64,000 nucleotides of DNA from Candidatus Sungiibacteriota bacterium. Its GTDB lineage: Bacteria; Patescibacteriota; Minisyncoccia; Sungbacterales; HO2-52-23. Below are positions 1,639 to 57,164 of the stretch, piece after piece. How positions within the stretch are numbered: the first letter of the stretch is position 1; each line of letters begins with the position of its first letter. The stretch covers positions 35,976-99,975 of the forward strand of contig JACPYI010000002.1 of NCBI GenBank assembly GCA_016196115.1, written 5' to 3'. The notes beneath the pieces were generated by a model. That model had not been told where the DNA came from. It worked only from the letters and a program-made list of their open reading frames with translations, and searched no databases. The position numbers and the translations under genes are program-made.

Positions 1639-2016
1639 ATGCTATCTCATTCCGCAGAAAAAGTCAAAGAGTGGGTTTCGGAAAACAAGACCGACCTCTT
1701 CACCGCCGCAATCATATTCCTGATCGGTATGGCAAGTTTCGGGCTGGGCCGGCTTTCTGTCTCGCTTCCTCAAAAAGAGCCGATCCGCCTTGAAGACCCG
1801 GCGTCTTCCGAGGAACGAACGGTTAGTTCGACTACCCCCACCGCAGTTGCTTTGAAAAACGGCTCATTCGTGGCGTCAAAATCAGGTTCCGTCTACTATG
1901 CCGTTTGGTGCTCCGGCGTTTCGCGCATCCGCGAAGAAAACAAGGTGTGGTTCAAAACCAAAGAAGACGCAAAAGCCCAAGGATATCGTCCGGCTAAGAA
2001 TTGTCCGGGTTTATGA
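1639..2016 (+). CDS. small membrane-anchored hypothetical protein with a C-terminal Cys-containing (Ada-like metal-binding type) motif
   Basis: N-terminal TM helix (LFTAAIIFLIGMASFGLG). C-terminus YYAVWCSGVSRIR..WFKTKEDAKAQGYRPAKNCP resembles the small Ada-like Zn-binding module family. The start is ambiguous: GTG at 1624 or ATG at 1639. Confidence 0.45.
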   Translation: MLSHSAEKVKEWVSENKTDLFTAAIIFLIGMASFGLGRLSVSLPQKEPIRLEDPASSEERTVSSTTPTAVALKNGSFVASKSGSVYYAVWCSGVSRIREENKVWFKTKEDAKAQGYRPAKNCPGL

Positions 2017-19972: not shown

Positions 19973-21130
19973 TTATTTTTGAAGGGGAAACTCGTCGTAG
20001 TCCATCATGCTGGCCAAATCCCTGAGTTCAGTCTCCGCATGCGGATTGTGCGTGAAGGCGGCCGGTTCCATGAGCTGCTTGAAACGTCCCGAAAGAGTGC
20101 CGGCCCGGTAATACGCATCAAGAATATTTGCGTCAAAATGAGAATAAATCCGTCGCATCTTTTCCCGGAAAAACTCGTTCATGTCAGGGTTGGTTTGAAG
20201 AATTTCAGCAAACCGTATCTTCTGCCATAATAAAAAACCGATTTGCGTTTGCGCCCAGGCAAGCATGTCCTTGGCCGCATTGGCCATCTCAACGACACGT
20301 TCTTTCGGCTTGTCCGACAAATCCGCAAATCCGTCCGCTATTCGTTGGCGAAGCAACGCGCGCAACTCCCAGTATTCCGCGTTGCCCTTTTTACGAAATT
20401 CGCGTGGGTCAACACGCCCGCCTTCGGAAAGGTCTCCTATCGCGACAAGGGCGGTGACGAGCGAACTCTCGGCGGTAAGAAACGGCTGAAAGAATTTCAA
20501 CCCCGCGGGTCTGCCGTCTTCTGTTTTGGAAAGCATGTCAGTCACGTCAATGACAGCTTCCACCTCGCCGGCAGAGTTGCGCCGCCCTATCTTCGCATCA
20601 TCAGGAGAAGGAAAGGGCGCGGGGAACTCAACATCGGGATACGTCGCCGCAATCGCTGCCCGCGCCATGCGCCGGACATTTTCTGTAAAGTACGCGCCGT
20701 CAGGATCTTCCTCGTTCATAATCTGCTCCAGTTCAAGCCAGCTTGCCTCTTCATTGCCGTGTCGATCCTTCTCGCCCTTAAGGGCATCCCGCACAGCCGG
20801 CGGCATCTTCTCGCCAAATCCGCGGTACCGCATGGTGGTCCCATACCCGAACGTTCCCGGCGTCATGTTAACTCTTTTCCGAATGACCATGTCATGAGCC
20901 GCAGCCGCAAACCGACCTGCACGGCGCATCTCTTTGGTAACCGTGATGCCCGACTGCTCCGCAATATCAAGGCCCTCTTCCGCAGCCGCACCCACACCCT
21001 TTGGATGTTCGGGGTTATGATACGGCTCTCCCTCAAACTCCTTCGTCACCTTGTTTTCTATCCTCTCCATGGCACGTTCCCCAATCTGCTCTAACGAGCC
21101 CTCGCGATCTTCAAGAACTCCTTCTTTCAT
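19973..21130 (-). CDS. hypothetical protein, possible HD-type phosphohydrolase fold
   Basis: 385 aa. N-terminal GEPYHNPEHP...AAAHDMV resembles the H...HD arrangement, and the GEPYxxHP start is reminiscent of RelA/SpoT-type HD domains. The similarity is weak. Confidence 0.4.
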   Translation of the reverse strand: MKEGVLEDREGSLEQIGERAMERIENKVTKEFEGEPYHNPEHPKGVGAAAEEGLDIAEQSGITVTKEMRRAGRFAAAAHDMVIRKRVNMTPGTFGYGTTMRYRGFGEKMPPAVRDALKGEKDRHGNEEASWLELEQIMNEEDPDGAYFTENVRRMARAAIAATYPDVEFPAPFPSPDDAKIGRRNSAGEVEAVIDVTDMLSKTEDGRPAGLKFFQPFLTAESSLVTALVAIGDLSEGGRVDPREFRKKGNAEYWELRALLRQRIADGFADLSDKPKERVVEMANAAKDMLAWAQTQIGFLLWQKIRFAEILQTNPDMNEFFREKMRRIYSHFDANILDAYYRAGTLSGRFKQLMEPAAFTHNPHAETELRDLASMMDYDEFPLQK

Positions 21131-26303: not shown

Positions 26304-26654
26304 TCACTCTATCACGATCATTAGTAACTCATCAAGCTCTTCTTTGCTGATCGCACCCGTTCGTAAAATCATCGGCTTGGCGTCGGTATAATCAATTACT
26401 GTGTGTGAACTGTTCGCCGATGTCTGCGCAACCGGGACATCGGTATGCTGAAGCAGTTGGACAACAAGCGGATCATCGGACATGCATACGCCGATTGTAT
26501 CGGATCCGTCGGTCAGCGCTTTTGGCAAGTTTTCTTTGTGGTGGAAAATCACCGTAACCGAGCCGGGCCAGATCTTTTCGAGAAACCGCCCTTTTGCATC
26601 ACAAATATAGGCGTAACGGCGGGCCATAGCGATGTCACTCACAAAAATATTCAC
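26304..26654 (-). pseudogene. N-terminally truncated YrdC/TsaC (Sua5-family) domain ORF
   Basis: 116 aa aligning only to the C-terminal two-thirds of the YrdC domain (WPGSVTVIF...TSANSS...). The ATP-binding N-terminal roughly 85 aa are absent, and the upstream gene's stop abuts its start. Confidence 0.45.
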
Positions 26655-29518: not shown

Positions 29519-32487
29519 TGTACCACAAAGTTAATGAGCTTGTCAGGAATAAAGATTACTCGAGTCGGTTCACTCGGCAGACGCTGTTTTACGGCATCCA
29601 AATTCCGGGCCAGCCGTGTTGCTTCCTGTTGGGAACTGCCGCGTTTAATTTCTATGACTACGCGTGTTTTACCGTTAATCTGAAAAATAAAATCAACCAT
29701 ATTTTCTTGAATGAATCGAGGATTATATTTCGGCCATGCCTCGCGATGGATAGATCTGAATTTCCGGCTTCCAGCCCCAAGCTCCCGGTTTCCAGATTTC
29801 TGCCATAATTCCTCCGTGATATGGGGGGCAAACGGCGCGAGCAACTTGAGAAAAATTTTTATGTCTTCCGCGCCTACCGCATTCTGTGATGCCTCAACCT
29901 CATTGAGTAAAATCATCAGCGCTGATATTGCCGTGTTGTACTGCAAATTCTCAATATCCTCCGTAACTTTCTTAATTGTTTTGTGCAGTATTATTTGTAA
30001 TGCGTCATCTTGAGGGCGATGCCCGAAGGATCTCTTGAGATTCTTCTCCGCCGGTTGGCGGATCATAATGACTTTGTGTGCAAACTTCCATACGCGCTCC
30101 AAAAATCGAGTTATGCCGCGAATGCCGGTGTCGCGGAAATCCCCGCCCTGTTCGAACGGCGCGAGAAACGCCAGATACATGCGCACCGCGTCGGCTCCGT
30201 ACGCGCGAATATAGTCGTCGGGATTGACCACGTTTCCTTTCGATTTTGACATTTTAGCGCCATCTTTAGTGATGAGTCCATGCGCCCTGAATTTCGGAAA
30301 CGGCTCTTCGAACTTCAGCAGTTTCCAATCGCAGAAAGCCATAGTCAGAAAACGCGAATACATGAGGTGCAATACGGAGTGTTCGGCGCCGCCGATATAA
30401 ATGCTTACCGGCAGCCACTTCTTGGTGATTTCTTGATCCCAAGGGACTTGTCCCGAGCGAGCAGAGCGAGTCGAGGGGTAGCGAAGAAAATACCACGCCG
30501 AATCAAGAAAAGTGTCCGAGACATCGGTCTCCCGACGCGCCATTTTTTTACACTTCGGACAACGGACTTTATAAAATGTCGCAACCGATGCAAGCGGCGA
30601 TTGGTCCGTACCGGTCGGCCGGAAATCTTTTACAAACGGCAGCTTGACCGGCAGATTTTTCTCCGGCACCGCATACCATCCGGGCATCTCCGGCCGCTCC
30701 CCTCTGCCGGTATTCTTGCATACCTCGCAAAAAATCATCGGAATCGGCGGTCCCCAGTACCGCTGCCGCGAAAGCAGCCAATCGCGCAGATGATATTGCG
30801 AAACCCTTTTCCCCCTCACGAATTTCGTGATCTCCCATTTTGCCTCTTCCGAATCCATGCCGGTGAACGAACCGGAATGGGTCAAAATTCCGTCTCCCGT
30901 ATAGGCGCGAGATCTGTCAAGAATCGCAAGCGCCCAGCGATGGCTTTCAGGCGACAAAAATTTTTCCAAGTCCTCTTTTGAAAACCAGAACATATCGTGG
31001 TTCTTCTGCTCGGCTTCGGAGATTGCTTCGCGTGCTCCATCTTGCAGCTCAAAATACAGCGCCCGCGCGTGTCCGAAACGATTCACCTGTTTGGGTACGT
31101 GGTACCATTTGCCATGTATGATGCCAAGATCGGCAATAAGTTTCGGATGCAGGAATCCTGCTTCTTCCCTGATTTCAGCTTTTGCGGCTTCTTCCGCAGT
31201 CTGTCCTTTTTCAATGCCGCCGGTTACCAGGGTCTGCCATGCCACGGTCTTCCACTTGAGTCCGATATACTTTTCTTCGGACCAATGCTTCACGATGGCG
31301 ATGATCGCGTCGCGATGTTCAAACGGCAAATCTTTGCGCACAATACCAGGCTCGGTCGTCTGGATGAATACCGGCTCGATCACCTGCCGGTTCGCGATCT
31401 TGTATTTCTTCGCAAACGCAAAATCGCGCTCGTCATGCGCCGGCACCGCCATGATCGCACCCGTACCGTAGCTGCCCAGCACGTAATCGGCGACAAAAAT
31501 CGAAATCTCTTCGTTGTTTGCCGGATTAATCGCCTTGATTCCTTTCAGTTCGACGCCGGTCTTTTCCTTGCCTGCGGCAATGCGATCCGCTTCTGCTTTT
31601 GTCCGTGCCTTTTTCACATATGCCACGACTTGCACATAGTTGGTAATCTGGGACTTGTGACTCTCTATAAATTCATGTTCAGGAGCAACCACCAAGTATG
31701 TCGCCCCAAACAGCGTATCCGGACGAGTAGTAAAAACTTCAATATCGTCATTCTTCACATCACTTTTCACTTTGAACTTTATCATCGCTCCTTCCGATTT
31801 TCCGATCCAGTTTTTCTGCGCGATTTTTACCCGCTCGGACCAGTCGATCTTCTCAAGATTTTGCAACAGGCGTTCTGTATATTGAGTAATGCGAAAAAAC
31901 CATTGCTCCAATTCTTTTTTAACCACCACGGACCCGCATCGCTCGCATTCGCCTGCGATAACCTGCTCGTCCGCAAGCACGGTCTTGCACGACGGACACC
32001 AGTTGACCGCCTGTTTTTTTCGGTATGCCAAACCCCGCTTAAACATCTGCACAAAGATCCATTGCGTCCATCGGTAATATTCAGCATCGTTCGTCTCCAG
32101 TCGTTCATCCCATGCAAACCCGTTGCCCATCATGGCAAGTTGCCGGTAAAAATTCTTTTCCAGAACACGACCGTAAGTCATTGGGTGCCGTCCGGTTTTC
32201 AGTCCATAATTTTCCGAGTGAATGCCAAACGCATCAAGTCCGATTGGCTCAAATACGTCATACCCCTGCATTCGCTTGAGACGGCCGTAGATATCAACAC
32301 CGGTGAACGTCCTCATGCCCCCAATGTGCAGCCCCTCCGCAGACGTGTACGGGAACATCATGAGATTATAAAACGGCTTTTTGGCGTGCTTAAAATCTGG
32401 TTCGTACGTCTTGTCCGCAAGCCACTTTTTTTGCCATCTGGCCTCAATTTTTTTCGGGTCGTATCGCATAGTTGACAAATTTTTCAA
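29515..32487 (-). CDS. leuS: leucyl-tRNA synthetase carrying an in-frame Nudix-like domain insertion (about aa 372-528)
   Basis: HIGH (EGLHIGG), TTRPDT, AVPAHDERDF and RDWLLSRQRYWG motifs, and the C-terminal domain. Inserted segment contains a Nudix-box-like GGIEKGQTAEEAAKAEIREEAGF. Confidence 0.9.
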   Translation of the reverse strand: MKNLSTMRYDPKKIEARWQKKWLADKTYEPDFKHAKKPFYNLMMFPYTSAEGLHIGGMRTFTGVDIYGRLKRMQGYDVFEPIGLDAFGIHSENYGLKTGRHPMTYGRVLEKNFYRQLAMMGNGFAWDERLETNDAEYYRWTQWIFVQMFKRGLAYRKKQAVNWCPSCKTVLADEQVIAGECERCGSVVVKKELEQWFFRITQYTERLLQNLEKIDWSERVKIAQKNWIGKSEGAMIKFKVKSDVKNDDIEVFTTRPDTLFGATYLVVAPEHEFIESHKSQITNYVQVVAYVKKARTKAEADRIAAGKEKTGVELKGIKAINPANNEEISIFVADYVLGSYGTGAIMAVPAHDERDFAFAKKYKIANRQVIEPVFIQTTEPGIVRKDLPFEHRDAIIAIVKHWSEEKYIGLKWKTVAWQTLVTGGIEKGQTAEEAAKAEIREEAGFLHPKLIADLGIIHGKWYHVPKQVNRFGHARALYFELQDGAREAISEAEQKNHDMFWFSKEDLEKFLSPESHRWALAILDRSRAYTGDGILTHSGSFTGMDSEEAKWEITKFVRGKRVSQYHLRDWLLSRQRYWGPPIPMIFCEVCKNTGRGERPEMPGWYAVPEKNLPVKLPFVKDFRPTGTDQSPLASVATFYKVRCPKCKKMARRETDVSDTFLDSAWYFLRYPSTRSARSGQVPWDQEITKKWLPVSIYIGGAEHSVLHLMYSRFLTMAFCDWKLLKFEEPFPKFRAHGLITKDGAKMSKSKGNVVNPDDYIRAYGADAVRMYLAFLAPFEQGGDFRDTGIRGITRFLERVWKFAHKVIMIRQPAEKNLKRSFGHRPQDDALQIILHKTIKKVTEDIENLQYNTAISALMILLNEVEASQNAVGAEDIKIFLKLLAPFAPHITEELWQKSGNRELGAGSRKFRSIHREAWPKYNPRFIQENMVDFIFQINGKTRVVIEIKRGSSQQEATRLARNLDAVKQRLPSEPTRVIFIPDKLINFVVQ

Positions 32488-39761: not shown

Positions 39762-40325
39762 TCAGAAATTTTTTATAACATAGAGTCCGGAATTAAATCC
39801 GCTTACACCGGGACAAGCATTTGTTATCCCATCATACCAAATCCATATTTTTGCCGGACAGATTACGGTAGAAGTGTTCTCAAGTACGACCATGAGCCAG
39901 TATTTTTGATTTGTGCTGCCCGGTGCCCATACTGTGCCTGCGGCATAATGATAGGGCCAAGATCCTGACGCATATGGTGTAGGATTGTGAGGCATGGAGG
40001 GCAAGAATGGCGTAAGCCCCGGTATCCAGTTCTCAATCGGCGTTACACTGGTGTCGCTTCTCATATCTCGACACCACTGATCATCAAGGTCATTAAGACC
40101 GGGATTGCATGCGCCGCTTATAAACGGATATGCGTTATTGCTGTCGTAGTAAAATTCAAGCGCGGTTTGAAGCTGTCCGAAATCTGCAATTCTTCGCGTA
40201 TCCCGTGCTTTTGATCGAGCGCTGTTCAAAGACGCCAAAACGATACTTGCAAGAAGTGAGATGATGGAAATAACCACGAGCAGCTCAATAAGAGTAAAGC
40301 CTCTATGAGTTTTTAGGTGGCGCAT
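39762..40325 (-). CDS. type IV pilin-like protein (prepilin-type N-terminal cleavage/methylation domain)
   Basis: GFTLIELLVVISIISLLASIVLASL N-terminal signature. Confidence 0.75.
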   Translation of the reverse strand: MRHLKTHRGFTLIELLVVISIISLLASIVLASLNSARSKARDTRRIADFGQLQTALEFYYDSNNAYPFISGACNPGLNDLDDQWCRDMRSDTSVTPIENWIPGLTPFLPSMPHNPTPYASGSWPYHYAAGTVWAPGSTNQKYWLMVVLENTSTVICPAKIWIWYDGITNACPGVSGFNSGLYVIKNF

Positions 40326-40342
40326 AACATTTTAATTTTTAT

Positions 40343-40609
40343 CTATTGACCCGTACCAAGCGGAGGATGAAGCGGGGATGGGGATGATGAGAAACCGAAT
40401 GCTCCCAAAAATACGAGGATTGCCGTGAGCAAGATTATCCCGGCTGCCGCCAGTAGTATGTAGCTTGCCTGTCTGGTATTTTGAATTCTCCCGCCGGAGA
40501 GACGCATGACCAGACGGATGAAAAATCCGTACTCTTGATACGGTCGCCTTTGCGGGGCTGCGCGTACCGGTTGCGGATTTTGTTTTTCATATTCTCCAAG
40601 AAGATCCAT
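40343..40609 (-). CDS. small hypothetical membrane protein
   Basis: 88 aa with a single TM segment (ILLAAAGIILLTAILVFLGAF). Confidence 0.3.
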   Translation of the reverse strand: MDLLGEYEKQNPQPVRAAPQRRPYQEYGFFIRLVMRLSGGRIQNTRQASYILLAAAGIILLTAILVFLGAFGFSSSPSPLHPPLGTGQ

Positions 40610-40664
40610 ACGTTGTTTATCATAACACCCCCCCCGCGGAGCGCAAGAAGTTTATCCACAGGCC

Positions 40665-42621
40665 CTATTTCACCAGCCATTCTTTTGGGTTGGCCGGGGT
40701 GTCGTTTTTGAGTTCGATGGTCAGGGAACCGATGTGTTGCTCGACCGGTTGCCCGGTGAAACTATCGATGCCGATCAGTTTGACATCTCTGACCAGTTCG
40801 ATAATCTTTCCGCGGTCGAACTCCGACGGCGTGATGGATGCCTGGAAGGCGGCGGTAAGCGCGGGCGAAAAGATACCGGTGCCGGCGGGTATCTCCCCGA
40901 TGTTCCATATCAGATCCTGGGTACCGCGATCAAACGTCATTCGGGCGCTTTGCGGAAATGTTTTTTCTTCCCAATGCACATGGCTCGGCAGTGTAGTGCT
41001 TACCACGACATTCTGCAGCGTATTGGAAAAACTTCGCGCCTCGAGCAGGATTGTATACGTCGTTTTCTTGCCGACTTCCGGCGGCAGCGGTCCGCTGTTC
41101 AAAATCGGAGACGCGTGATACACGGCTCTGCCCGCAAACACGACATGCGAGCGTACTTTGAGGCGCAGCGCGTCGTTCGCGGTCAGATCAGTCCCGGCGA
41201 GTTCGCTTGGCTGCTCGCCTGCTTCAATGTGCGCGCTTATTCCGGCAGCCAGATTTTTTTCGCCGGCATTGCGAAGTATGGGTGTCTTTCGCAAATCCAC
41301 GAGGATGCTCACCTGGCCGCCCTGCCCCGGGGCAAGCTCGCGAAGCCCGGTCACGTTTGCCGGCGCCCAGATCAGGGTGCGGGTCTGGCCGTCATAGATC
41401 CCTGCATCCTGAATCCGCAGCGACGGAAAATCATATATCCGATACTCACCGCGCTCGAATCGCGTCAGCGTATCCAATGCTCCCGATGCGTTAAAAAATT
41501 CTTCAAGCGACGCGCGGATCGTGATATTTTTGAGCAGCGACAACGTATTATTCCGATATCGCAGGGTGAATGCCACACTGTCGCCTTCTCCGACCACGCC
41601 CTCGCGTTTGTCATTGAAAAACGCCTGAACGGAAAGCGGCGCCGCGGCAATGCGTGTCTCCGAACTGGCCTCGCTGTAGATCATAAACTCTTCATTCGCT
41701 CCATTGAATACGCCAAGCATGCCGTGGAATGCCTTGATGTCGCCGTCCTGCCCCGAGAGGGTACCGTGGATCGTGATGTCGCCGCCGGCTCCGGGCGAAA
41801 GCGTACCGAGATCCCAGAGCATCGTGTCTTTGGCCGGCGCGGGATCGGCGGAAGCGAACGAGAAGCCGTCCGGATACTCGAGCCGGAGCGACATGTGCTC
41901 GAATGGAAGCCGGGCACTGGACACATAATGCACTTTTACGTCTACGTTCTGCCCGCGGCTCACGGTCTGGGGCACTTCCCACGAGACCGCCAGGGGCACG
42001 CTTGCGACCAGAAGCGTTTCCGCGGCACGGGTCGTAAAGCGCGCCTGGAGATTTTGCGGGCGGTACAGAAGCACCGCTTCTATGTTTTTCTGGTCCCCTT
42101 CTTTGCCGAAGATCCGGGTGGTGATTTCGACGACGCGTTCCTCGTCCGGCTTGAGATCGTCAAGTTTTTCAACGAACCGCGACGGCACCACCGTTTCCTG
42201 GTTGCCCTGTTGGATCACGGACCCGGGAGGCAGCACGAGTGCCAATTCAACATCCTGCACGGTCGTATGAGACGTGTTATGCATGCTGACCGGAATCGTG
42301 CGCGCCTCGCCCGATATGAGCGGCCCCTGATCATGCAAAGCCAAGCGTACCTCTTGCCCGCGCGTGCCAAGATACAGGAATAAAAACGTTGCCATACCAA
42401 TGATCAGAACCAATATGAATCCGCCCAGAATAGGCCAGAAAAGCTTGCGCTCAAAAAGGCTCTGTTTTTGGACCGGAGGCGCGTATCCGGGCTCCTCCCA
42501 TGAGGCCTGCGGGCGGCGCATGGTCTCGGGAAAATGCTCGCGATATTGCATCCGCCTCTTCAACTCTTCATCCGAACCCGACTCGTATAATTTTTTTTGC
42601 AAATCTTCGACTTTGGTCATA
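40665..42621 (-). CDS. large membrane-anchored hypothetical protein with repeated beta-sandwich (DUF11/CARDB-like) modules
   Basis: N-terminal TM helix then about 550 aa of repetitive extracellular sequence. The start is taken at MTKVEDLQKK, because the longer listed ORF would run into the upstream hairpin element. Confidence 0.55.
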
Positions 42622-42643
42622 CACCTTAACTTATTTTTACCAA

Positions 42644-42712
42644 GCAAGAAAGGCAAGTGCTTTAAGCGGCTTAGCGTACTCGCGTCAAAGCGTAAGCACT
42701 TGCCTTTCTTGC
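42644..42712. repeat. long perfect hairpin (19-bp stem, 31-nt loop) between recO stop and the next gene start
   Basis: gcaagaaaggcaagtgctt ... aagcacttgcctttcttgc. Confidence 0.6.
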
Positions 42713-42716
42713 TCCT

Positions 42717-43163
42717 CTACAAATGTAATCCCAGAAACGGCGCGAAACGATCCGCAAACCTCCGGAACACTTCTTCTGAAAATTCCCGTTCATCGAGCAG
42801 CAGCATGCTTTCAAGCAAAAGCTCCCACAGCGCGGCGTCTTTTTGTCCGGGAAACGAGCGTTCGTTCATGAGCGCCGCAATCCGGAGCGCCGCAAAGAGC
42901 TTTTCGGGATTTTGCCGCATGCCCTCCCAAAACCGCGTCATGGTCGCATGCGTCAGGCGCTCGCCGCGCTTGCCTAAAACAAATGTCACGCGCACCATGC
43001 TTAATGGCTCAAGATGGCCCTTGAGCTTCGCGCCTTCCTTTTTTACGCTTTGCGCCCGGCCGCGGATTTTCCCGAATTCTTTGGTATAAATGTCGTACAG
43101 CGCGTCATATTCGCCGTATGAAGTTTTATTCAATACGATTCCTTCTGTGGTGTGATATTCCAT
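42717..43163 (-). CDS. recO: DNA repair protein RecO, N-terminal OB-fold domain only
   Basis: EGIVLNKTSYGEYDALYDIYTKEFGKIRGRAQSVKK matches the RecO N-domain. At 148 aa it lacks the C-terminal Zn-finger domain. Confidence 0.65.
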   Translation of the reverse strand: MEYHTTEGIVLNKTSYGEYDALYDIYTKEFGKIRGRAQSVKKEGAKLKGHLEPLSMVRVTFVLGKRGERLTHATMTRFWEGMRQNPEKLFAALRIAALMNERSFPGQKDAALWELLLESMLLLDEREFSEEVFRRFADRFAPFLGLHL

Positions 43164-43170
43164 TCAGCAT

Positions 43171-43237
43171 GTCATTCCCGACTTGATCGGGAATCCAGTT
43201 CTTTACCATTCCGGATTCCCGCTTTCGCGGGAATGAC
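43171..43237. repeat. double-hairpin repeat family, copy B, 7 nt upstream of recO ATG
   Basis: gtcattcccgacttgatcgggaatccag ttctttaccattc cggattcccgctttcgcgggaatgac. Confidence 0.7.
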
Positions 43238-43249
43238 GCCAATACGCTT

Positions 43250-43675
43250 TTATTTTCCTCCCACCACATGCAGCGTACCCACCATGTCGAAGTGCGTGCG
43301 CTTATGGCCGTCTACCACTCCCTCTCCGCACGGCACCGAACAGTAGAACGGAAAGTCGCCCTCCTGGGTTACGACAAATTCGACTTTGATGGTCTGGCCC
43401 GCAGGCATCCGCTGCGAGATGCCGAACGCGTCAATCGCAAACCCGTGATCGTAGTCGTCCTCGTTGATGATCGTTGCCACGATCCTGTCTCCGCGCTGGG
43501 CCTCGATGGCCTCCGGCTCAAACTGCCAGTGATTTTGCTTCGCGCGAATGGTGATTTCCCGCACCTTGCCCGTGGTCACCGGAACCGACTTTTGCGGCAG
43601 CAAAAACACGCGATACCCGACGCCGCCCGCCAGGATCAGCACGGCAATAATAATTAAAACAAGATATTTATTCAT
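43250..43675 (-). CDS. membrane-anchored cupredoxin-like protein with CuA/CoxII-type ligand pattern
   Basis: N-terminal TM. HGFAID...FYCSVPCGEGVVDGHKRTHFDM gives the H...C..C...H..M arrangement of CuA-type cupredoxins. Confidence 0.55.
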   Translation of the reverse strand: MNKYLVLIIIAVLILAGGVGYRVFLLPQKSVPVTTGKVREITIRAKQNHWQFEPEAIEAQRGDRIVATIINEDDYDHGFAIDAFGISQRMPAGQTIKVEFVVTQEGDFPFYCSVPCGEGVVDGHKRTHFDMVGTLHVVGGK

Positions 43676-43678
43676 GGG

Positions 43679-44848
43679 TCAGGGGCTCGGGTTTACTTTT
43701 AAAAAATTCTTTACTCCCCAACTGAGAAGCAAAATGGATCCGAGAGACGCAAGGAACAGGACGATTTTAGGATTCTGGCCGGGCGCCTTGTCTTCTACCT
43801 TGATCCAAAAACTTGCGGTGAGCGCTTTGTCCGGCGGCAGATTAATTCCTTGCGGACGGAACTCGGCAAACGTCTTGTAGAGCCCGGCCTCAGGGAAAAC
43901 TACTCGAAACTGAATTCCGTGATCGGCGGCGTCCGACCCGGCGATATTTTCTTCCTCTCCATGCGCCTGCGCAACCTCAAGGATGCGAAATCCTTTTTTA
44001 TCATACATCATATGTCCGGCTCCTTCAGGATGCGTATGAATAAACTGCTTCCAGTCGTCTTTGATGAGCGTCAAATGCATTGGAGCGCCAAGATAGTTCT
44101 CTGTATTGACTTCTTTTCCGTCTTTCGTATGAATCTCCAGAAACAGGCGCGTCTCGCCGTCTTTTACCGCAGGGTCCTGTATATTCAGATTTACTTCATA
44201 GGCACCGACCTCAGCCGTGCGGCTAAACGAAACAGATTTTGAAAAACGCTCGCCCACCCCCCCTACCTCAATCGGCTCCTGCCCAAAGGAGTCGTTCATC
44301 CCATCTTTTTTGACTTCAGACCAGATTTTATACCGTCCCGGCTTTTCAAAAACATGCACGATCGTGAACATGCCCGATGTCGCAGCCGGCACCGGATGAA
44401 TATGAAAGAATTCATTCATATCGTCCCGGATGCCGATCACATGCATCAGTTTCGTGTGTTCGATTTCAAGTGCGTCCGCGGGAACCGGCGTGCCCTCGGG
44501 TTTTTGATTGACATAAAAATTCAAATGAGTTCTCGTGCCGGTCGCGCCAAAAAGCGGGTGCCCTTCCGGTGGCCATGCATCATAGGACAAGTCAACACTC
44601 AATCCGCTTTTGATATCGGCGACTTCATGATATGTGCTGTCTTCATGCCCGTCGTGTTCTTCTCCCATCATCGCGTCGTGCGCATCGGGCATGGCATCCA
44701 TATGCGCATGAACGTCGGTCAGGGCATTGTACTGAAACCGCATCGGCACATACCAGCCGAACATCACGATTAAGAGACAAGTGAACGTAACGGAAAACCA
44801 AAACCGCCACGGCAGGATTTGCTGTTCGATTTTTTTATCTTCGTCCAT
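43679..44848 (-). CDS. His-rich membrane protein with two internally repeated (cupredoxin/YtkA-like) domains, putative metal binding
   Basis: N- and C-terminal TM segments. Repeated motifs FFHIHP/FIHTHPEG, MHVIG/MHLTL, and an N-terminal HAHMDAMPDAHDAMMGEEHDGHED His/Asp-rich stretch. Confidence 0.45.
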   Translation of the reverse strand: MDEDKKIEQQILPWRFWFSVTFTCLLIVMFGWYVPMRFQYNALTDVHAHMDAMPDAHDAMMGEEHDGHEDSTYHEVADIKSGLSVDLSYDAWPPEGHPLFGATGTRTHLNFYVNQKPEGTPVPADALEIEHTKLMHVIGIRDDMNEFFHIHPVPAATSGMFTIVHVFEKPGRYKIWSEVKKDGMNDSFGQEPIEVGGVGERFSKSVSFSRTAEVGAYEVNLNIQDPAVKDGETRLFLEIHTKDGKEVNTENYLGAPMHLTLIKDDWKQFIHTHPEGAGHMMYDKKGFRILEVAQAHGEEENIAGSDAADHGIQFRVVFPEAGLYKTFAEFRPQGINLPPDKALTASFWIKVEDKAPGQNPKIVLFLASLGSILLLSWGVKNFLKVNPSP

Positions 44849-45918
44849 TATAAAGATTCACGTTTCTTTTTAACATAATACCACCAAATCGGAAAAATCC
44901 AAAGCGCGATCAGCACCCAAGTGCCAAGCCGGAGCGGCAACCCGAAAAGTCCCGTCTGCCCCGCGAGTTCGGCAATGCCATGGCTATGCGGAATGCCTGC
45001 AAAGTGGAAATTATTGATGATGCGCCCCAGAAAATATTCCTCCTGCGTAAATTCTTCAAGCAGCGAATGCTGTCCGGAATACACCCACCACGCGTGGCTG
45101 AACAGCCCCAGCACGAGGATAAACCCGGCCACAAACACCATGCCCCATCCGGTCGCGCGCTCGATCTTGTCTTTGCGCGCTACGAGCCACGAGAGTCCGT
45201 TCACGCCCATGATCGCGAGTATCGCAAGAAACAGCAGCGGAAGAACCCGCCCGATCGCGTGCACGAAAAACAACAGCCACCCGTAAAAAATGCTGCCCGA
45301 CACCGCGATGCGCCCGAGAATAAACGGCGTTGCCGGATGCGGACATCCCACGCCCACATTGCCCAGGAAAAGCCCGAGCGCCAGCGCTTTGATATAATCC
45401 TGCTGTTTCTGGATGAACGCCGGAGCCGAGCCGGTGTAGGTCGGCATGTGCGCGTTGATCAGGCCGAGCTCGCCCAAGGCAAAAAGATACGCGAGAACGC
45501 CCGCAACAAAATACAGCCAGTTTTTTACTACCTCAAGCGGCGCGCCAAGCGTGCCGATCGCCACCTTGCCGATTACGGCCGCCGCCACTCCGTACAAGCT
45601 TAACGTGATGGTGACTCCGAGGCCAAAAAAAATAGCAACGCCCAGTCCCTTAACTGCTCCTTTACCCATGGAGAGCGGCACGATTACGAACGCGAGCGGC
45701 AAAGTGCAGGGCAGCACGATCATGGTAAGCCCGGCCGCAAAACTGAACACGTACCATCCGAACCCGATCGTGGATCCGGCCGCCTCAAGCCCACTGCCCA
45801 CATTGAGCGTGGTCGTAAAAAACCAAACCAGCCCGCCCGCGATCACCGCGAGCAGCACCGTCCCGAACCCCGCGAGCAAAATCTTAGCTTTGTGCGTTGT
45901 CTGTGCCTGTTCCATAAT
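44848..45918 (-). CDS. CcdA/DsbD-family transmembrane thiol-disulfide electron transporter
   Basis: Polytopic. Cys in TM1 (VLPCTLP) and a second conserved Cys (VGCPHP), as in the cytochrome c biogenesis CcdA/DsbD_2 family. Start taken at MEQAQ. Confidence 0.65.
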   Translation of the reverse strand: MMEQAQTTHKAKILLAGFGTVLLAVIAGGLVWFFTTTLNVGSGLEAAGSTIGFGWYVFSFAAGLTMIVLPCTLPLAFVIVPLSMGKGAVKGLGVAIFFGLGVTITLSLYGVAAAVIGKVAIGTLGAPLEVVKNWLYFVAGVLAYLFALGELGLINAHMPTYTGSAPAFIQKQQDYIKALALGLFLGNVGVGCPHPATPFILGRIAVSGSIFYGWLLFFVHAIGRVLPLLFLAILAIMGVNGLSWLVARKDKIERATGWGMVFVAGFILVLGLFSHAWWVYSGQHSLLEEFTQEEYFLGRIINNFHFAGIPHSHGIAELAGQTGLFGLPLRLGTWVLIALWIFPIWWYYVKKKRESL

Positions 45919-46291
45919 GCGACCTCTGCATAAAAAAGAGCGCCAGCGCCGCTCCAAGCAATCCAATATCGCGAAACGTGATGCGGTCAATTCCGACAAA
46001 AAGCAGTATGAACGCCATTTCTAATGTGGCGAGTAGGGCGGCGATACGCACGCCCCGCGCGCCGAAAAACCGCGCGATCAGCACAAGCGCCAAAATAAAT
46101 TCTCCCGTCGCCTGGACTTTCAGAAAAATGTCCAATGGCATTACCGGCGTGATCAGATGAAAAAGCCATGGGGAAACATAGCTCTTCCATTGCTGGGTGT
46201 TATAAAAAATATCGTAGCTGGAATACAGATATACGAGACCAAGACCGAGACGAAGCATCCATTCGGGAAGTTTTTGTTGAAGAGAACTCAT
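45884..46291 (-). CDS. DoxX family membrane protein
   Basis: 135 aa four-TM protein with a DoxX-like profile (LRLGLGLVYLYSSYD...). Confidence 0.7.
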   Translation of the reverse strand: MSSLQQKLPEWMLRLGLGLVYLYSSYDIFYNTQQWKSYVSPWLFHLITPVMPLDIFLKVQATGEFILALVLIARFFGARGVRIAALLATLEMAFILLFVGIDRITFRDIGLLGAALALFFMQRSHYGTGTDNAQS

Positions 46292-46306
46292 AAATTTCTC
46301 TATTCA

Positions 46307-46765
46307 CTACTCCACTTTCAACCCGAATTGCTCCGGATGCTCCAGAACATTTTTCACGGCGTGAAGAAATATGTCGAAGTCGCCAAGATTATCGCGTAGG
46401 ATGCCGTATAGTTCTTCGGGTTTGATTTCAGCATAAAAATGCGTCAGGCGATTACGATACCCGGCCATACGAGCAAGCGCGGAGTCCGCAAACTTTTTTT
46501 CCACGATTCCCAATTCTCCCAATTTTTTGGCGATATCTTTATACTCTGTCCCTCGTCCGCCGTTTAAGCGCGACAGGATATGCGTTCCGATATGAAAAAC
46601 ACCTTCCAGCGCCTCGCGAAGATGCAGCTTGGCAACGTCAAAATGATAATCCTCCCGCGCAAACTGCTCGAGCGGATAGGCGCTCAATTTTCGCAACAAC
46701 TCCAAGTCGCGCAAAATGCCGTCCATGCGGGGAATCAATGATTGTCGTTTCAGCGGGGGCGTCAT
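46307..46765 (-). CDS. hepT: HepT-like HEPN toxin (DUF86)
   Basis: Rx4HxY motif (RNRLTHFY) near the C-terminus. Overlaps the upstream NTase gene by 4 nt. Confidence 0.8.
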   Translation of the reverse strand: MTPPLKRQSLIPRMDGILRDLELLRKLSAYPLEQFAREDYHFDVAKLHLREALEGVFHIGTHILSRLNGGRGTEYKDIAKKLGELGIVEKKFADSALARMAGYRNRLTHFYAEIKPEELYGILRDNLGDFDIFLHAVKNVLEHPEQFGLKVE

Positions 46766-47184
46766 ATGCGTTGGAGAACTCCTCGATTAAATTCATTGAG
46801 CAATGGCATGAAGTCGCGATAGAGCGCTGCAACGCGTTCTTCAAAATCCAATCGAATGTCCGGGTCTGTTTCAAACAGCACCTGCCCGTGCGTAATTACG
46901 TCAAACCGAAGTTCAAGCGGCACGCGGTCAAGAAAAACAATGTCAATGTCGCGAAAACCGCTCATGTCAAAAACATCCGTGAAGACATCGTACAATGCGT
47001 TATACAATTCCGTCTTGTTTTCGGGCAACGGCAGCGCATTGCGCGAGAATAGAACGCCCACATCTATATCGCTTGCAGACGTTGCCAATCCTTCGGCGTG
47101 GGAACCAAAGAGATACAAAACCGCAACACCCAGTTGGCGCAGCCGGTCTGCTGGAATCGGTTTTTTTTGTATCGGGAAAAGCAT
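46762..47184 (-). CDS. mntA: MntA-like minimal nucleotidyltransferase antitoxin
   Basis: LFGSHAEGLATSASDIDVGVLF is the GS..(n)..DxD NTase-fold motif. Operonic with the HepT gene. Confidence 0.8.
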   Translation of the reverse strand: MLFPIQKKPIPADRLRQLGVAVLYLFGSHAEGLATSASDIDVGVLFSRNALPLPENKTELYNALYDVFTDVFDMSGFRDIDIVFLDRVPLELRFDVITHGQVLFETDPDIRLDFEERVAALYRDFMPLLNEFNRGVLQRI

Positions 47185-47193
47185 ATCTCCATC

Positions 47194-47454
47194 TTACGAC
47201 AGTTCTTTTAACTTCGCAACAAATTTTTCTTTGTCAAACCCGCCGCTTGCCCACAACTCGCCGTTGAGAATGATCCCGGGCGATGCGAGTATCATATGCT
47301 TGCCCGCCATCTCCTGTCCTTCCGGCGTTGTCACTTGTACGTTCCGATACGCCACATTCGGCCAGTCCTTTTCGATGGAGTGCCAGAACTCCTCAAAGAG
47401 TTTGCACACATGGCACCCGGGAGACGAAAGCGTTTCAAGTATAACGGATTTCAT
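47194..47454 (-). CDS. small thioredoxin-fold protein (CxxC, redox-active disulfide protein-like)
   Basis: 86 aa with SPGCHVCK CxxC near the N-terminus. Confidence 0.6.
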   Translation of the reverse strand: MKSVILETLSSPGCHVCKLFEEFWHSIEKDWPNVAYRNVQVTTPEGQEMAGKHMILASPGIILNGELWASGGFDKEKFVAKLKELS

Positions 47455-47517
47455 ATGGTCTTGAGTATACCAGAATGATCTGAAAACGCACGCGAGGTTA
47501 TCAACATGCTTCGTATT

Positions 47518-47557
47518 CCACTAAGCAAAATAGACGGCCGTCTATTTTGCTTAGTGG
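47518..47557. repeat. 40-bp perfect palindrome (20-bp arms, no loop) immediately after xseB stop
   Basis: ccactaagcaaaatagacgg|ccgtctattttgcttagtgg. Confidence 0.6.
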
Positions 47558-47559
47558 AG

Positions 47560-47778
47560 CTACTCGGCGCTTTCTTCCGCGTCCTCTTCAATCTCCTTTT
47601 TCACCTCTTCAAACTCGTTCTCGATCTGTTTGAGCCGTTCCCGGGCGGTCTTGATCAGACGCGCGCCCTCGCGCACTTTTTCAAGCCCGGCTTCCACATC
47701 CACTTCTTTCTGCTTCTCGAACCAGTTCACGATCTCCTCGAGTTTTTTCAGCGACTCATTGATATTTGTTTTGGCCAT
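47560..47778 (-). CDS. xseB: exodeoxyribonuclease VII small subunit
   Basis: 72 aa helical protein SLKKLEEIVNWFEKQ...LEKVREGARLIKTARERL fits the XseB family. Confidence 0.8.
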   Translation of the reverse strand: MAKTNINESLKKLEEIVNWFEKQKEVDVEAGLEKVREGARLIKTARERLKQIENEFEEVKKEIEEDAEESAE

Positions 47779-47789
47779 CCGGTTGTCCT

Positions 47790-47889
47790 GTCATTCCCGC
47801 GTAAGCGGGAATCCAGATCTGACAGTCGCTGGATTCCCGACCCACGCTCCGCCAAAGGCTTCGGCGAGGCGAGTCAAGTCGGGAATGAC
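47790..47889. repeat. double-hairpin repeat family, copy C, in the xseA-xseB spacer (H2 loop carries a 36-nt insertion)
   Basis: gtcattcccgcgtaagcgggaatccag atctgacagtcg ctggattcccga[ccacgctccgccaaaggcttcggcgaggcgagtcaa]gtcgggaatgac. On the coding strand the element end supplies AGGA 7 nt before the xseB ATG. Confidence 0.75.
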
Positions 47890-47903
47890 AAAATACATGC
47901 GTC

Positions 47904-49106
47904 TTAACTTCTTATCTTCTTAACTTCCGTCTCAATCATACCATCTGCGAATGTAAGATCAAGCGCGTCACCGGGATATACGTCACGCGCGCTCCGGATT
48001 ATTTTTCCCCGGACCCGGGCAATACTGTAGCCCAATTTCAATTGCCGCTCCGGATCGTATGCAAGAATTGTTTTTTGATAGCCCGAGATCGTATCGTTCA
48101 CGGCATCCAGACAGGCAGAGAAATATTTCGGAAGTGCCAAAGCAAACTCGAGCGTGTGCCGCTTGCGAAGAAGCGCTTCATGGTACGCGCCGAAAATTTC
48201 CCGTTCCGCAAGCCGCACGCGGCTTAACGCCTGCTCCCATGAACTGTTCAGCACGCGCGTCACCGCTGTCGGCGTTGATACCGCGATGTCCGCCGCAAGC
48301 GCCATGAGCGGCACGTCTTTGTCGTGCCCGATCCCGCAGATCACGGGCTTGGGAAACCGGCTGATCTCGCGCACCAGCATTTCGTTGTTGAATGCAAGCA
48401 GTGATTCCAGCGACCCGCCGCCGCGGATCACCACGAGCACGTCAATGTCTTTGTCGCGAAATGAGCGCACAGCCGCGAGCAGCTCGCCCACCGCGAGCTG
48501 CCCCTCCACGCGCGAATCGATAAACTTGATTTGATACCCGAACTTCCCGATATTGTTTAAAAAATCGTGGATCACGGCCCCGGTTTTTGACGTGATCAGC
48601 CCGATCTCCTCCGGATACTCCGGAATCGCACGCTTGCGCTCCGGCGCAAACATCCCTTCGCGTTCAAGCTTTTGTCTCAATTCATCATACGCCTTTTTCA
48701 AAGCGCCTTCGCCTATCAGCTCAATGCTGTCCGCATGAAAACTTAAACGTCCCGACGGCTTATAAATTTCCGGAAACCCGTGCGCGATGATCTCCATCCC
48801 TTCGCCGATCACTACTCCGCTCATCCGATACTCCCGCTGCCACATAAAACAGTTGATGGCACTTCCGTCATCGTTGTCCTTGAGCGTGAAAAACAAATAA
48901 TTAAGGCGAAAATCACAGCTCGACACCTCCCCCACGATCTTCGCCTCCGACGTCCGCAACCCGATATTCAAGAGATCCAAAAATTGACCCACGGAAAATA
49001 TCTTCTCTTCTGTGCCAGTAGCCACAGTATTCGAAAACAACTCAATTTGTTTCGATTTTTTCACCTTACCGCGCCGTGTTTTTGGTTTTTGCACAGGGCT
49101 TGACAT
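47904..49106 (-). CDS. xseA: exodeoxyribonuclease VII large subunit
   Basis: N-terminal OB-fold and conserved XseA catalytic core (VIRGGGS.EDL..FN). Confidence 0.85.
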   Translation of the reverse strand: MSSPVQKPKTRRGKVKKSKQIELFSNTVATGTEEKIFSVGQFLDLLNIGLRTSEAKIVGEVSSCDFRLNYLFFTLKDNDDGSAINCFMWQREYRMSGVVIGEGMEIIAHGFPEIYKPSGRLSFHADSIELIGEGALKKAYDELRQKLEREGMFAPERKRAIPEYPEEIGLITSKTGAVIHDFLNNIGKFGYQIKFIDSRVEGQLAVGELLAAVRSFRDKDIDVLVVIRGGGSLESLLAFNNEMLVREISRFPKPVICGIGHDKDVPLMALAADIAVSTPTAVTRVLNSSWEQALSRVRLAEREIFGAYHEALLRKRHTLEFALALPKYFSACLDAVNDTISGYQKTILAYDPERQLKLGYSIARVRGKIIRSARDVYPGDALDLTFADGMIETEVKKIRS

Positions 49107-55856: not shown

Positions 55857-57164
55857 TGAGACCGTAGAACAATACACACTTCAGAACTGGTATGCGTCCT
55901 GAAAAGCATGTCTCGCTGCTACGGGTAGAGAGATAATCTCCTGATTACCACCCTGCCTGTGGCAGTGATGAGGGGGTTTCAAGGTTCTTTAATGTTGTGA
56001 GGCAACTTGCAGAGGAAGGAGAAGAGTTACGATGCGCTTTAAGTTCATCATAAGGTAGGTCAGGAGACCTTGCACGTGTACTTTCCATCTCCCCCGATAC
56101 CGTGCGGTGCCCAGATGATGCCAGCGTTTACCTTCGGCGTACTTTCGCTCCACGTTATGGCGCTGATGCTTGAGATGAAGGTAGTGGGTATTCCATCTTT
56201 TCTGTGCTCGCTCCTCATGCATATTGTTACGGGGAATCGTGTAGTCAAGGATACCTCGTTGGTAAAGAGCTTGTGCATTACCCACATATGCCTTGTCTCC
56301 TCCCTGCTTACGAATGGTATCCTCACCCCGTGCATCCCGTTCCTTGTCTACGAGAGACGCAAGCATTGACCCGTCGCTTACTGACGCATCGGTTGTTTCT
56401 ACTGCTGTTACCAGTTCTGTTTTGGCGTCCTGATTGATGTGACTCTTGTACCCATACCAGCGTTTGCTGCCCGGAGCAGTCCCTTTTGTGCCAAATCCCG
56501 CATCTGGATCAGAGGTATTGCGGGAGATCCATCTGTGATCCTGCTCACCCTTCTTGTCTTTCAGGCATCGCGCCACATCAACATCTGCCTTGATATCGGT
56601 CGCATCCGCATTCCGTTTGCTTGAAATCTCAATACCCAGACGCTCTGCTTCTTCAAGTATTCGGTAAAACAGTCGTTCAAAGGCATCGATCCCGATCCGC
56701 TCCTTGAACTTTCCAATCTCTGTCCAGTGAGGAATTGCATCAGTCATACTCATCCCGATAAAGTAGCGGTACATGATATTGAGGTCTGTCTGTTCGCACA
56801 CAACCCGTTCAGATAGGTTGTAGAGATTCTGGAGGATCAGCAGTTTGAAGATGATCAGGGGGTGGTAGGCGTGCTGACCAATTGTTGCATAACAATCCGC
56901 TACCTCTGACTCCACAAATGACCAATCAATGAGCTGCTGCATTCTAACAAGGAGGTGGTCTTGATGCCGGTCAATGACAGATTGGTACGCATAGGAGCCA
57001 AAGAGTGAATTGTTGAATCCTTCTTGATTTTTGAACATAGAGATGTATGGTTAATTGGCGAATAATATACCTATTGTACCACACACATCCCTGTTTGAGA
57101 TGGGGAAAACAAACACGAAAGGTCGTATCAGTTGTTCAAGGGGCGGTATTGTTCTACGGTCTCA
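55857..57164. mobile_element. IS5-family insertion sequence (about 1.3 kb) with 19-bp terminal inverted repeats
   Basis: TIR TGAGACCGTAGAACAATAC at 55857-55875 and its reverse complement at 57146-57164 (18 of 19 match), enclosing a single DDE transposase gene. No clear target-site duplication. Confidence 0.75.
55989..57038 (-). CDS. IS5/IS1182-type DDE transposase
   Basis: 349 aa. DDE_Tnp_1-like regions (N-terminal HTH, DKAYVGN, C-terminal YRGRW). Confidence 0.8.
   Translation of the reverse strand: MFKNQEGFNNSLFGSYAYQSVIDRHQDHLLVRMQQLIDWSFVESEVADCYATIGQHAYHPLIIFKLLILQNLYNLSERVVCEQTDLNIMYRYFIGMSMTDAIPHWTEIGKFKERIGIDAFERLFYRILEEAERLGIEISSKRNADATDIKADVDVARCLKDKKGEQDHRWISRNTSDPDAGFGTKGTAPGSKRWYGYKSHINQDAKTELVTAVETTDASVSDGSMLASLVDKERDARGEDTIRKQGGDKAYVGNAQALYQRGILDYTIPRNNMHEERAQKRWNTHYLHLKHQRHNVERKYAEGKRWHHLGTARYRGRWKVHVQGLLTYLMMNLKRIVTLLLPLQVASQH

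Follow-up and report, generated by a model that had tools for sequence, protein, structure and literature searches.

A patescibacterial gene cluster joining thiol-redox and membrane-tethered copper-type proteins: a candidate extracytoplasmic arm of a CopZ/CopA system

Introduction

This report deals with a seven-gene cluster on the minus strand of a 64,000-nucleotide stretch of DNA from a Candidatus Sungiibacteriota bacterium (assembly GCA_016196115.1, contig JACPYI010000002.1, positions 35,976 to 99,975 of the forward strand), which we analyzed at its full length and refer to as the window. The cluster encodes a thioredoxin (Trx), a toxin-antitoxin pair, a DoxX-like membrane protein, a CcdA/DsbD-type electron transporter, a His-rich tandem-domain protein, and a membrane-anchored cupredoxin. 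We propose, with about even chances of being right, that it forms the extracytoplasmic arm of a copper homeostasis (cop) system in Paceibacteria-type Patescibacteria, among which it is probably laterally shared. We set the scene with the closest described systems and then turn to the locus and its proteins.

One described counterpart is the cop operon of Streptococcus pneumoniae (copY-cupA-copA), which also places a transmembrane (TM)-anchored cupredoxin-fold protein beside copA, as is the case in 34 of 36 loci orthologous to the cluster. CupA, however, is reportedly cytoplasmic, whereas the window cupredoxin has a 2His-2Cys-Met ligand set, is predicted to face outward, and comes with CcdA, Trx, and a YtkA-like protein; copA is not adjacent to it in the window. 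YtkA domains, known from CtaK and the C-terminus of YcnJ, are membrane-tethered extracytoplasmic beta-sandwiches, as predicted for the domains of the window's His-rich protein, and they are implicated in delivering copper to a CuA site in Bacillus subtilis (PMC13344008). The His-rich protein differs from them in its tandem domains, two TM anchors, His/Met linker, and H..MH..D..HxHP signature, and its partner is a stand-alone cupredoxin instead of a cytochrome oxidase.

A comparable logic underlies the metallation of the CoxB CuA center by TlpA, ScoI, and PcuC and the Sco/PCuAC route of Thermus, where a thiol reductant keeps a CxxxC motif reduced and a chaperone inserts copper (PMC6669012). The cluster, in contrast, comes without Sco, PCuAC, an extracytoplasmic thioredoxin, or an oxidase, and CcdA is apparently its last reductant. 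The Scs system (ScsB/ScsC/ScsD) and DsbD (cutA2/dipZ) likewise employ a DsbD-family membrane reductase for envelope copper (PMC10907172, PMC3322552). The DsbD-like ScsB/ScsC pair couples thiol reduction with copper tolerance (PMC10907172), and a TlpA-like thioredoxin of Corynebacterium glutamicum belongs to the genes that copper induces most strongly (PMC3140484). Unlike the cluster, Scs has periplasmic Cu(I)-binding thioredoxin-fold partners, occurs in diderm Proteobacteria, and contains no cupredoxin or YtkA-like component.

At the level of single proteins, the CuA domains of COX2 and N2O reductase (NosZ) and nitrosocyanin have their fold in common with the window cupredoxin, are its best sequence and structure matches, and share the pattern H...C-x3-C...H-x2-M. 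The window protein sets itself apart as a stand-alone protein of 141 amino acids (aa) with an 8-residue insertion in the ligand loop, and the corresponding enzymes are not encoded alongside. For the His-rich domains, the top structural neighbors are CrdA of Helicobacter pylori, P19/Tp34/HftA/FtrA, and Zcp (DUF4198), which have similar His/Met-based extracytoplasmic metal sites; Zcp also consists of two domains (PMC12663993). These neighbors show no detectable sequence similarity to the His-rich protein, differ from it in both metals and partners, and are soluble, not doubly membrane-anchored.

The component families are thus known or resemble known ones, and copper-thiol coupling is established. 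New, so far as the literature shows, is the combination of a cytoplasmic Trx, a His-decorated CcdA that has no thioredoxin-fold partner, a tandem YtkA-like protein in many cases fused to CcdA, and a stand-alone CuA-like cupredoxin with CopA/CopZ in non-respiring bacteria; a description of the cluster was not found in the literature.

Conservation of the cluster and its link to copA-copZ

Gene calls were scored with hidden Markov model (HMM) scans of Pfam and NCBIfam against the family cut-offs. A preliminary description, made from the sequence alone, had listed seven consecutive minus-strand genes, and all seven open reading frames (ORFs) indeed run in the same direction from 47454 down to 43250. 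They are closely packed: the two toxin-antitoxin genes overlap by 4 nucleotides (nt), the CcdA gene ends and the His-rich gene begins on one shared base (TAATG), and the cupredoxin gene follows after another 3 nt. A promoter and terminator scan of 42500-48000 gave no signal above shuffled expectation and does not define an operon.

One genome per species was scanned, and relatives of the His-rich protein turned up in 80 loci, among which 57 are non-redundant patescibacterial loci (window included). ORFs were called in these loci, and the queries run against them were the window proteins plus a CopA, a CopZ, and an Nramp from a Yanofskybacteria locus. Around distant relatives outside Patescibacteria (L061, L063, L078, and L083), simple ORF calls in high-GC DNA gave no informative gene neighborhoods. 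The preliminary description had tied its idea of a module to a gene order kept among relatives, and the order Trx, DoxX-like, CcdA, His-rich, cupredoxin is shared by the 57 loci. Where at least 4.5 kilobases (kb) are available upstream of the cupredoxin gene (46 loci), CcdA is found in 45, the DoxX-like gene in 44, and Trx, as the first gene of the cluster, in 43. In 32 of the 57 loci, CcdA and the His-rich protein even form a single reading frame.

The strongest evidence for a copper role is that the cluster runs into copA-copZ in relatives. When at least 6 kb of downstream sequence is present (36 loci), a same-strand CopA follows in 34 and CopZ in 28. The gap between the cupredoxin and CopA genes has a median of about 270 nt and measures at most 10 nt in 14 of 44 cases. 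All 39 full-length CopA proteins carry the CPC, YN(x4)P, M(x2)SS, and DKTGT motifs (P1B-1, Cu(I)-type), and an N-terminal MxCxxC is present in 38 of them; MxCxxC also occurs in CopZ (34/34). All-against-all clustering of the neighboring ORFs of the 57 loci revealed no other conserved neighbor gene or regulator, and the flanks differ from genome to genome; therefore, each conserved partner is a copper or thiol protein. An Nramp gene (Mn/Fe importer) lies divergently just upstream of the Trx gene in Yanofskybacteria-type loci only (L001-L004, L025, L035, and L037).

Besides this synteny, the copper reading draws on fusions, folds, topology, and the invariant residues of the cupredoxin, the His-rich protein, and CcdA. 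The earlier idea of an extracytoplasmic copper-handling or disulfide-reducing module, uncharacterized in this form, is supported: the gene order is conserved, and the families are copper-related.

The cupredoxin

The last gene of the cluster (43250-43675, minus strand) encodes a membrane-anchored cupredoxin of 141 aa that matches Pfam Cupredoxin_1 with 38.9 bits (cut-off 27) and gives secondary HMM matches to the NosZ CuA domain, nitrosocyanin, and CoxB. Its fold is nearest to CuA domains, nitrosocyanin, and CupA, so that the protein did not turn out to belong to some unrelated family, and the CuA-like H..C..C..H..M set that had been read from the sequence is borne out by its orthologs: H77, C112, C116, and H128 are invariant (57/57) and 55 of the 57 retain M131, the remaining two having Gln, which is also known as an axial ligand. 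The motif CSVPCGEG is invariant as well. Among 897 homologs, the 120 best entries listed share at least 70% identity with the window protein; wherever these entries name a source, it is patescibacterial.

The strict CuA pattern, H-(x~35)-C-x3-C-x3-H-x2-M, calls for 3 residues between the second Cys and the His, where the window protein has 11 (C116 to H128). The difference lies in an 8-residue insert, VVDGHKRT, between G119 and H128, modeled by AlphaFold2 as a beta-hairpin (predicted local distance difference test (pLDDT) 91). With the insert removed, the H77-C112 spacing of 35 and the CSVPCGEG...HFDM sequence presumably equal the COX2 consensus CSELCGxxHxxM, as judged by inspection. The Cys...Cys-x-Met-x-Met ligands of the CupA type are not found in the window cupredoxin (CSVPCGEG...HFDM); the CGMxM motif is confined to cupredoxin domains that distant relatives of the His-rich protein carry as fusions. 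We thus describe the protein as carrying a predicted binuclear copper site of the CuA or CupA type, which falls outside CuA in the strict sense by its loop spacing and its context.

Taken at face value, the likeness to CuA leads to a second reading, possible in our view but doubtful, in which the cupredoxin is a true CuA-type one-electron redox protein and the remaining genes are its assembly line. The tandem YtkA-like protein would then be a chaperone like CtaK or PCuAC, Trx and CcdA would reduce the CxxxC motif (the job of TlpA), and CopA/CopZ would supply copper. The four invariant ligands, the axial residue (Met in 55 of 57 orthologs, Gln in two), and, leaving the insertion aside, the COX2-like motif and H77-C112 spacing (by inspection) all suit such a protein. 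Precedents exist too, as YtkA/CtaK domains serve CuA assembly in B. subtilis (PMC13344008), and TlpA-type reduction with chaperone metallation is established for CoxB (PMC6669012). In addition, a survey annotates the single-domain cupredoxin of some Patescibacteria as plastocyanin and suggests that it donates electrons to NirK (PMC12931201).

Against this reading, an oxidoreductase partner is conserved in none of the 57 loci. No heme-copper oxidase or N2O reductase gene is present in the window or conserved in the 57 loci, and the 64-kb window holds no respiratory or nitrite-reductase gene. The lack of a respiratory context that had been remarked on earlier therefore stands for the genes of the window, which is as far as its scope reaches. 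The Cys-His spacing of 11 instead of 3 points away from it as well, as do the tight coupling to CopZ and to a CopA of the detoxification type, which has a metal-binding domain at its N-terminus, and the fact that relatives outside Patescibacteria combine the His-rich domain with Cu(I) sites of the CupA type and not with CuA-type sites. Genomic context suggests a role for this cupredoxin family other than that of a plastocyanin serving NirK. A further candidate explanation, a COX2 remnant of a decayed oxidase operon, was rejected: the mean pairwise identity is 62.8%, the ligands are invariant, and COX1 is never adjacent.

The charges around the anchor, a net +1 toward the N-terminus and about 0 on the opposite side, predict that the metal domain lies outside the cytoplasm. 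C112 and C116 are the only conserved extracytoplasmic Cys residues of the cluster, which would make them the natural target of CcdA.

The His-rich tandem-domain protein

The gene at 43679-44848 (minus strand) encodes a bitopic protein of 389 aa, which according to its AlphaFold2 model consists of an N-terminal TM helix, a His/Met-rich linker, two YtkA-like beta-sandwich domains, and a C-terminal TM helix. It has no match in Pfam, NCBIfam, or the PDB sequences, and a PDB search gave nothing meaningful from either the single sequence or a 103-sequence profile. A protein identical to it is on record from a metagenome-assembled genome of Candidatus Sungbacteria. The HIHP and HTHPEG motifs, noted earlier as signs of two repeated domains, belong to an internal repeat, MH(x4)(R/K)DD(x2)(E/Q)F(x)H(x)HP, that a half-versus-half BLASTP comparison recovers with E = 8e-5. 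The model (103 homologs, pLDDT 84.9) agrees with this, placing beta-sandwiches at about residues 71-195 and 211-352 between the two TM helices. The linker is disordered and between 10 and 101 residues long, and His and Met together make up 25% of it, compared with 7% elsewhere.

Both domains carry the H..MH..D..HxHP set, namely, H131, M135, H136, D143, H149, and H151 in domain 1 and H240, M257, H258, D264, H271, and H273 in domain 2, and the six core His residues are invariant in 103 sequences. The closest folds are those of the periplasmic metal-binding proteins CrdA, P19/Tp34/HftA, and Zcp. In a profile search of 1.84 billion representatives, 4,042 relatives were found at E<=1e-3 and 1,975 at E<=1e-10, which makes for a large unannotated superfamily.

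The link to YtkA comes from relatives. The window protein itself gives no match to Pfam YtkA at E<0.1 and is, by score, not a member of that family. Close homologs (P0004, P0008, and P0025) have precomputed PF13115 (YtkA) hits, and the distant relatives P0335 and P0358 exceed the cut-off of 25.9 bits with 33.6 and 29.1 bits, respectively. Distant relatives of the domain are fused to DsbD_TM, in both orders, or occur in CopC-CopD fusions of YcnJ-like architecture that match Pfam YtkA above the cut-off. Moreover, 13 of the best 150 representatives are fused to a C-terminal Cupredoxin_1 domain with a CupA-like C...CGMxM motif, and one of these has a lipobox. The protein accordingly appears as a distant relative of copper-binding YtkA domains instead of a member of an unrelated family, and we conclude that it is a divergent tandem YtkA-like, extracytoplasmic module, putatively copper-binding. 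A second, import-type context for the domain exists inside the phylum, where two proteins of about 900 aa (L069 7961-10663 and L077 8084-10777) unite the tandem His domain with a CopC domain at the N-terminus; they resemble the YcnJ-like CopC-CopD fusions, with no CopD match reported.

The YtkA-like domains are predicted to lie outside the cytoplasm, because the CcdA-His fusions continue in frame after the last CcdA TM helix, CcdA probably ends in the cytoplasm, and the C-terminal tail is rich in Lys/Arg (3.0 versus 0.8 Asp/Glu).

Thioredoxin, CcdA, and the DoxX-like protein

The cluster opens with a thioredoxin-fold protein of 86 aa (47194-47454, minus strand). As had been claimed, it is a CxxC protein: it scores 24.9 bits against Pfam Thioredoxin_3 (cut-off 24.8), has a weak secondary match to TIGR00411 (MJ0307-type thioredoxin), and contains C14-H-V-C17, with both Cys residues invariant in 48 of 48 orthologs. 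No N-terminal signal or TM helix was found in the ORF. Since the CxxC motif is invariant and an export signal is missing, the protein is a plausible cytoplasmic electron donor to CcdA.

CcdA itself (44848-45918, minus strand) matches Pfam DsbD_TM with 30.0 bits (cut-off 27.1). Its ORF extends open to a TTG at 45999 (44848-45999); however, the first approximately 27 residues of the TTG-initiated frame are unconserved, and the ATG at 45918 is thus probably the true start. The identification as a transmembrane thiol-disulfide shuttle is reinforced by C98 (LPCTLP) and C219 (GCPHP), a membrane-embedded pair in TM1 and TM4 that is invariant in 48 of 48 orthologs. H221, H247, H302, H311, H338, and H340 are invariant to the same extent. 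The protein has two extra TM helices and an outside loop bearing His residues, and four of the six invariant His residues lie in or beside the loop between the sixth TM helix and the extra seventh. Both termini are presumably cytoplasmic, judging from a manual TM count and the charge distribution.

A CcdA together with a thioredoxin-fold protein is the classic reductant-export pair, and one could thus see here a generic CcdA-ResA-type pathway, for reducing envelope disulfides or maturing cytochrome c, that happens to sit beside unrelated membrane proteins. We regard this as very improbable. Genes for cytochrome c maturation or for other thiol clients are not conserved around the cluster, and the thioredoxin lacks an export signal. 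In addition, dozens of genomes keep the fixed order with the cupredoxin, CopA, and CopZ, which together with the His-rich fusions excludes coincidence. Cytochrome c maturation as such was rejected, as other maturation genes are not conserved around the loci.

The His residues of CcdA suggest yet another role, that of a Trx-driven surface metal reductase or uptake aid in which electrons would cross the membrane through the His-decorated CcdA to Cu(II) or Fe(III) bound by the YtkA-like domains or by the cupredoxin, and the reduced metal would then be taken up or handled safely. Six invariant His residues around the CcdA Cys pair and in the outside loop, the direct fusion of CcdA to metal-binding domains, and a cluster without an extracytoplasmic thioredoxin partner would all fit such an enzyme. 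Uptake is hinted at by the other His-rich relatives fused to a CopC-CopD import module, by the Nramp gene that adjoins the cluster in Yanofskybacteria loci, and by structural echoes of the iron-uptake pair of P19 (FtrA) and a cupredoxin (FtrB). However, the conserved transporter is the exporter CopA, and no importer is conserved; the Nramp adjacency is confined to a single lineage and to the opposite strand, and the P19/FtrB likeness stays at the level of the fold. We therefore rate a metal reductase as decidedly unlikely. FtrABCD-like iron uptake (P19 plus cupredoxin) in the narrow sense was discarded, as there is no FTR1-type permease and all sequence-level links lead to copper proteins.

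A related idea, which we consider unlikely as well, is that the His-decorated CcdA gives electrons straight to copper on the fused YtkA-like domains and on the CuA-like cupredoxin, with no thioredoxin-fold intermediary. If true, it would amount to a Trx-fueled transmembrane redox chain, free of quinones and cytochromes, that ends at a copper center and possibly works as a cupric reductase or an extracellular electron outlet. To our knowledge, the host bacteria are otherwise thought to be without membrane electron transport.

The DoxX-like gene (45884-46291, minus strand) encodes a protein of 135 aa with four TM helices by inspection. The name DoxX, which the preliminary description had used, is weakly supported: the window protein has no Pfam/NCBIfam match at E<0.1, and among 32 orthologs there are weak matches to MauE (16) and DoxX (7), the best with E = 1.3e-3, for which reason we assign it tentatively to the MauE/DoxX superfamily. 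An NCBIfam search of the protein and its 32 orthologs gave nothing convincing. Two of the 32 have a stray match (E = 0.011) to HvfX, a DoxX-type protein linked to copper and ribosomally synthesized and post-translationally modified peptides (copper-RiPP), which we mention as a lead only. The invariant residues are R14, Y23, W35, E64, and T105-F-R-D108, and conserved Cys residues were not found in this protein.

A proposed route for copper and electrons

In the copper homeostasis proposal, CopZ would pass cytoplasmic Cu(I) to the P1B-1 ATPase CopA, whose gene lies directly downstream in most relatives. At the outer face of the membrane, the two membrane-tethered proteins, the tandem YtkA-like protein and the cupredoxin, would accept the copper, with both the binding and the direction of flow deduced from the families involved. 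The former would offer a His3/Met-type site in each domain as well as its His/Met-rich linker and would then pass the copper on; the latter would hold it at its 2Cys-2His-Met site. Meanwhile, electrons from the cytoplasmic CxxC thioredoxin would pass via the membrane-embedded Cys pair of CcdA to the cupredoxin, so that both Cys ligands would be held reduced and copper-competent against copper-catalyzed oxidation. The outcome would be copper tolerance or controlled trafficking of copper at the cell surface.

Several points weigh against this proposal. Neither CopA nor CopZ is encoded beside the cluster or elsewhere in the 64-kb window; the two exceptions among the 36 loci examined for CopA are precisely the window and its closest relative, L005, where CopZ is likewise missing beside the cluster, so the copper-efflux link of the window's own cluster rests on orthology. 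A conserved regulator is absent from the neighboring ORFs of the loci. The outward orientation of the cupredoxin's metal domain is predicted from a weak charge bias and from analogy. Its 2His-2Cys-Met set exceeds what a Cu(I) acceptor needs and fits a redox-active CuA-type center better, which favors the assembly-line alternative; the characterized CupA makes do with Cys and Met ligands only. Stoichiometric copper binding has a limited capacity for detoxification. Finally, across the 57 loci the cluster has no conserved gene for an exported thioredoxin-fold protein (the genome could encode one elsewhere), and every characterized CcdA/DsbD pathway that we know of uses such an extracytoplasmic protein.

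Toxin-antitoxin insertion and probable mobility of the cluster

The HepT/MntA pair named in the preliminary description is readily recognized: both genes score as NCBIfam equivalogs of the type VII system, above the cut-off of 60. The MntA nucleotidyltransferase antitoxin (46762-47184, minus strand) reaches 74.8 bits with NF047752 and also matches Pfam Polbeta and NTP_transf_2. The HepT RNase toxin (46307-46765, minus strand) reaches 73.8 bits with NF047751 and 67 bits with Pfam HepT-like, and its translation contains RNRLTHFY (Rx4HxY). The pair lies between the Trx and DoxX-like genes in the window only. As a component of the system it was rejected, since the other 56 loci do not have it at this position; it is a passenger insertion and not a conserved member of the cluster.

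Insertions of 2.5-5 kb occur at differing junctions of the cluster in other loci (L005 5197-8921; L006 1319-3803 and 8332-9230; L019 4607-9953; L021 7350-9953; L030 4914-8441; L043 585-3939), and part of them carry HepT/MntA-type genes. Toxin-antitoxin or mobile genes thus seem to have landed in the cluster repeatedly.

Sequence identities were compared across 26 loci in which Trx, DoxX-like, CcdA, His-rich, cupredoxin, CopA, and CopZ are all present (including L009, L011, L013, L014, and L016). The mean pairwise identity is highest for CopA (74.5%), followed by CopZ (68.9%), CcdA (67.2%), the cupredoxin (62.8%), and Trx (62.1%), and lowest for the DoxX-like (45.5%) and His-rich (44.3%) proteins. 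In the same genome pairs, CopA is 72-78% identical, whereas flanking housekeeping proteins (Fmt-, Def-, and Mur-ligase-like) are 23-53% identical; a GltX-like neighbor averages 49% over its five loci. Because of this gap and the variable flanks, the sequence comparison suggests that the whole cluster has been exchanged laterally among Paceibacteria lineages or is under exceptional constraint. The region had earlier been called accessory or horizontally acquired on account of the toxin-antitoxin pair. As an insertion restricted to the window, the pair is no evidence about the cluster, and it is the identity gap and the flanks that argue for mobility.

Significance

Patescibacteria have minimal genomes, and a unit of seven genes and about 7 kb that is kept in dozens of species, and apparently exchanged, therefore represents a significant investment. 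The proposal offers a testable function for a large unannotated superfamily (about 2,000 clusters at E<=1e-10), for a CuA-like cupredoxin that stands alone and figures in surveys as "plastocyanin" or "COX2," and for an unusual CcdA with invariant outside His residues and no thioredoxin partner. If the mechanism is true, it would reveal how bacteria with a single membrane and no respiration deal with copper once CopA has exported it, and it would extend the copper-thiol link of Scs and TlpA to a new architecture. As a caution, a cupredoxin in such genomes should not be taken as evidence for respiration.

Other genes of the window

The other large ORFs of the window are housekeeping genes, encoding PyrG, GltX, MurG, FtsW, MurD, Mfd, DprA, TopA, ParAB, GlyA, Dcd, LeuRS, TatD, MetRS, RecA, FtsK, and RpoC, among others. 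The leucyl-tRNA synthetase (29515-32487, minus strand; 990 aa) has an unusual insertion, a NUDIX match at residues 416-510, after the editing domain. RecO (42717-43163, minus strand) has only 148 aa and aligns with positions 2-133 of TIGR00613, a model of 239 positions, which corresponds to just the N-terminal OB domain; the protein is either truncated or a shorter variant of Patescibacteria.

A 385-aa ORF at 19973-21130 (minus strand) has no Pfam match, and at 26651-29518 (minus strand) a 955-aa protein combines a purple-acid-phosphatase N-terminal domain with a peptidoglycan-binding domain. Two genes just downstream of RecO (39762-42656, minus strand) encode a surface-type protein of 663 aa with DUF11/NEW3 domains and a type IV pilin-like protein that bears a methylation motif at its N-terminus; the long ORF running antisense there (40734-42383, plus strand) is probably an artifact. 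Mobile-type genes are represented by a DDE transposase (DUF772/DDE_Tnp_1) at 55989-57038 (minus strand) and a tyrosine recombinase at 3511-4443 (plus strand), which neighbors a PD-(D/E)XK/Cas4-like nuclease at 1994-3205 (minus strand).

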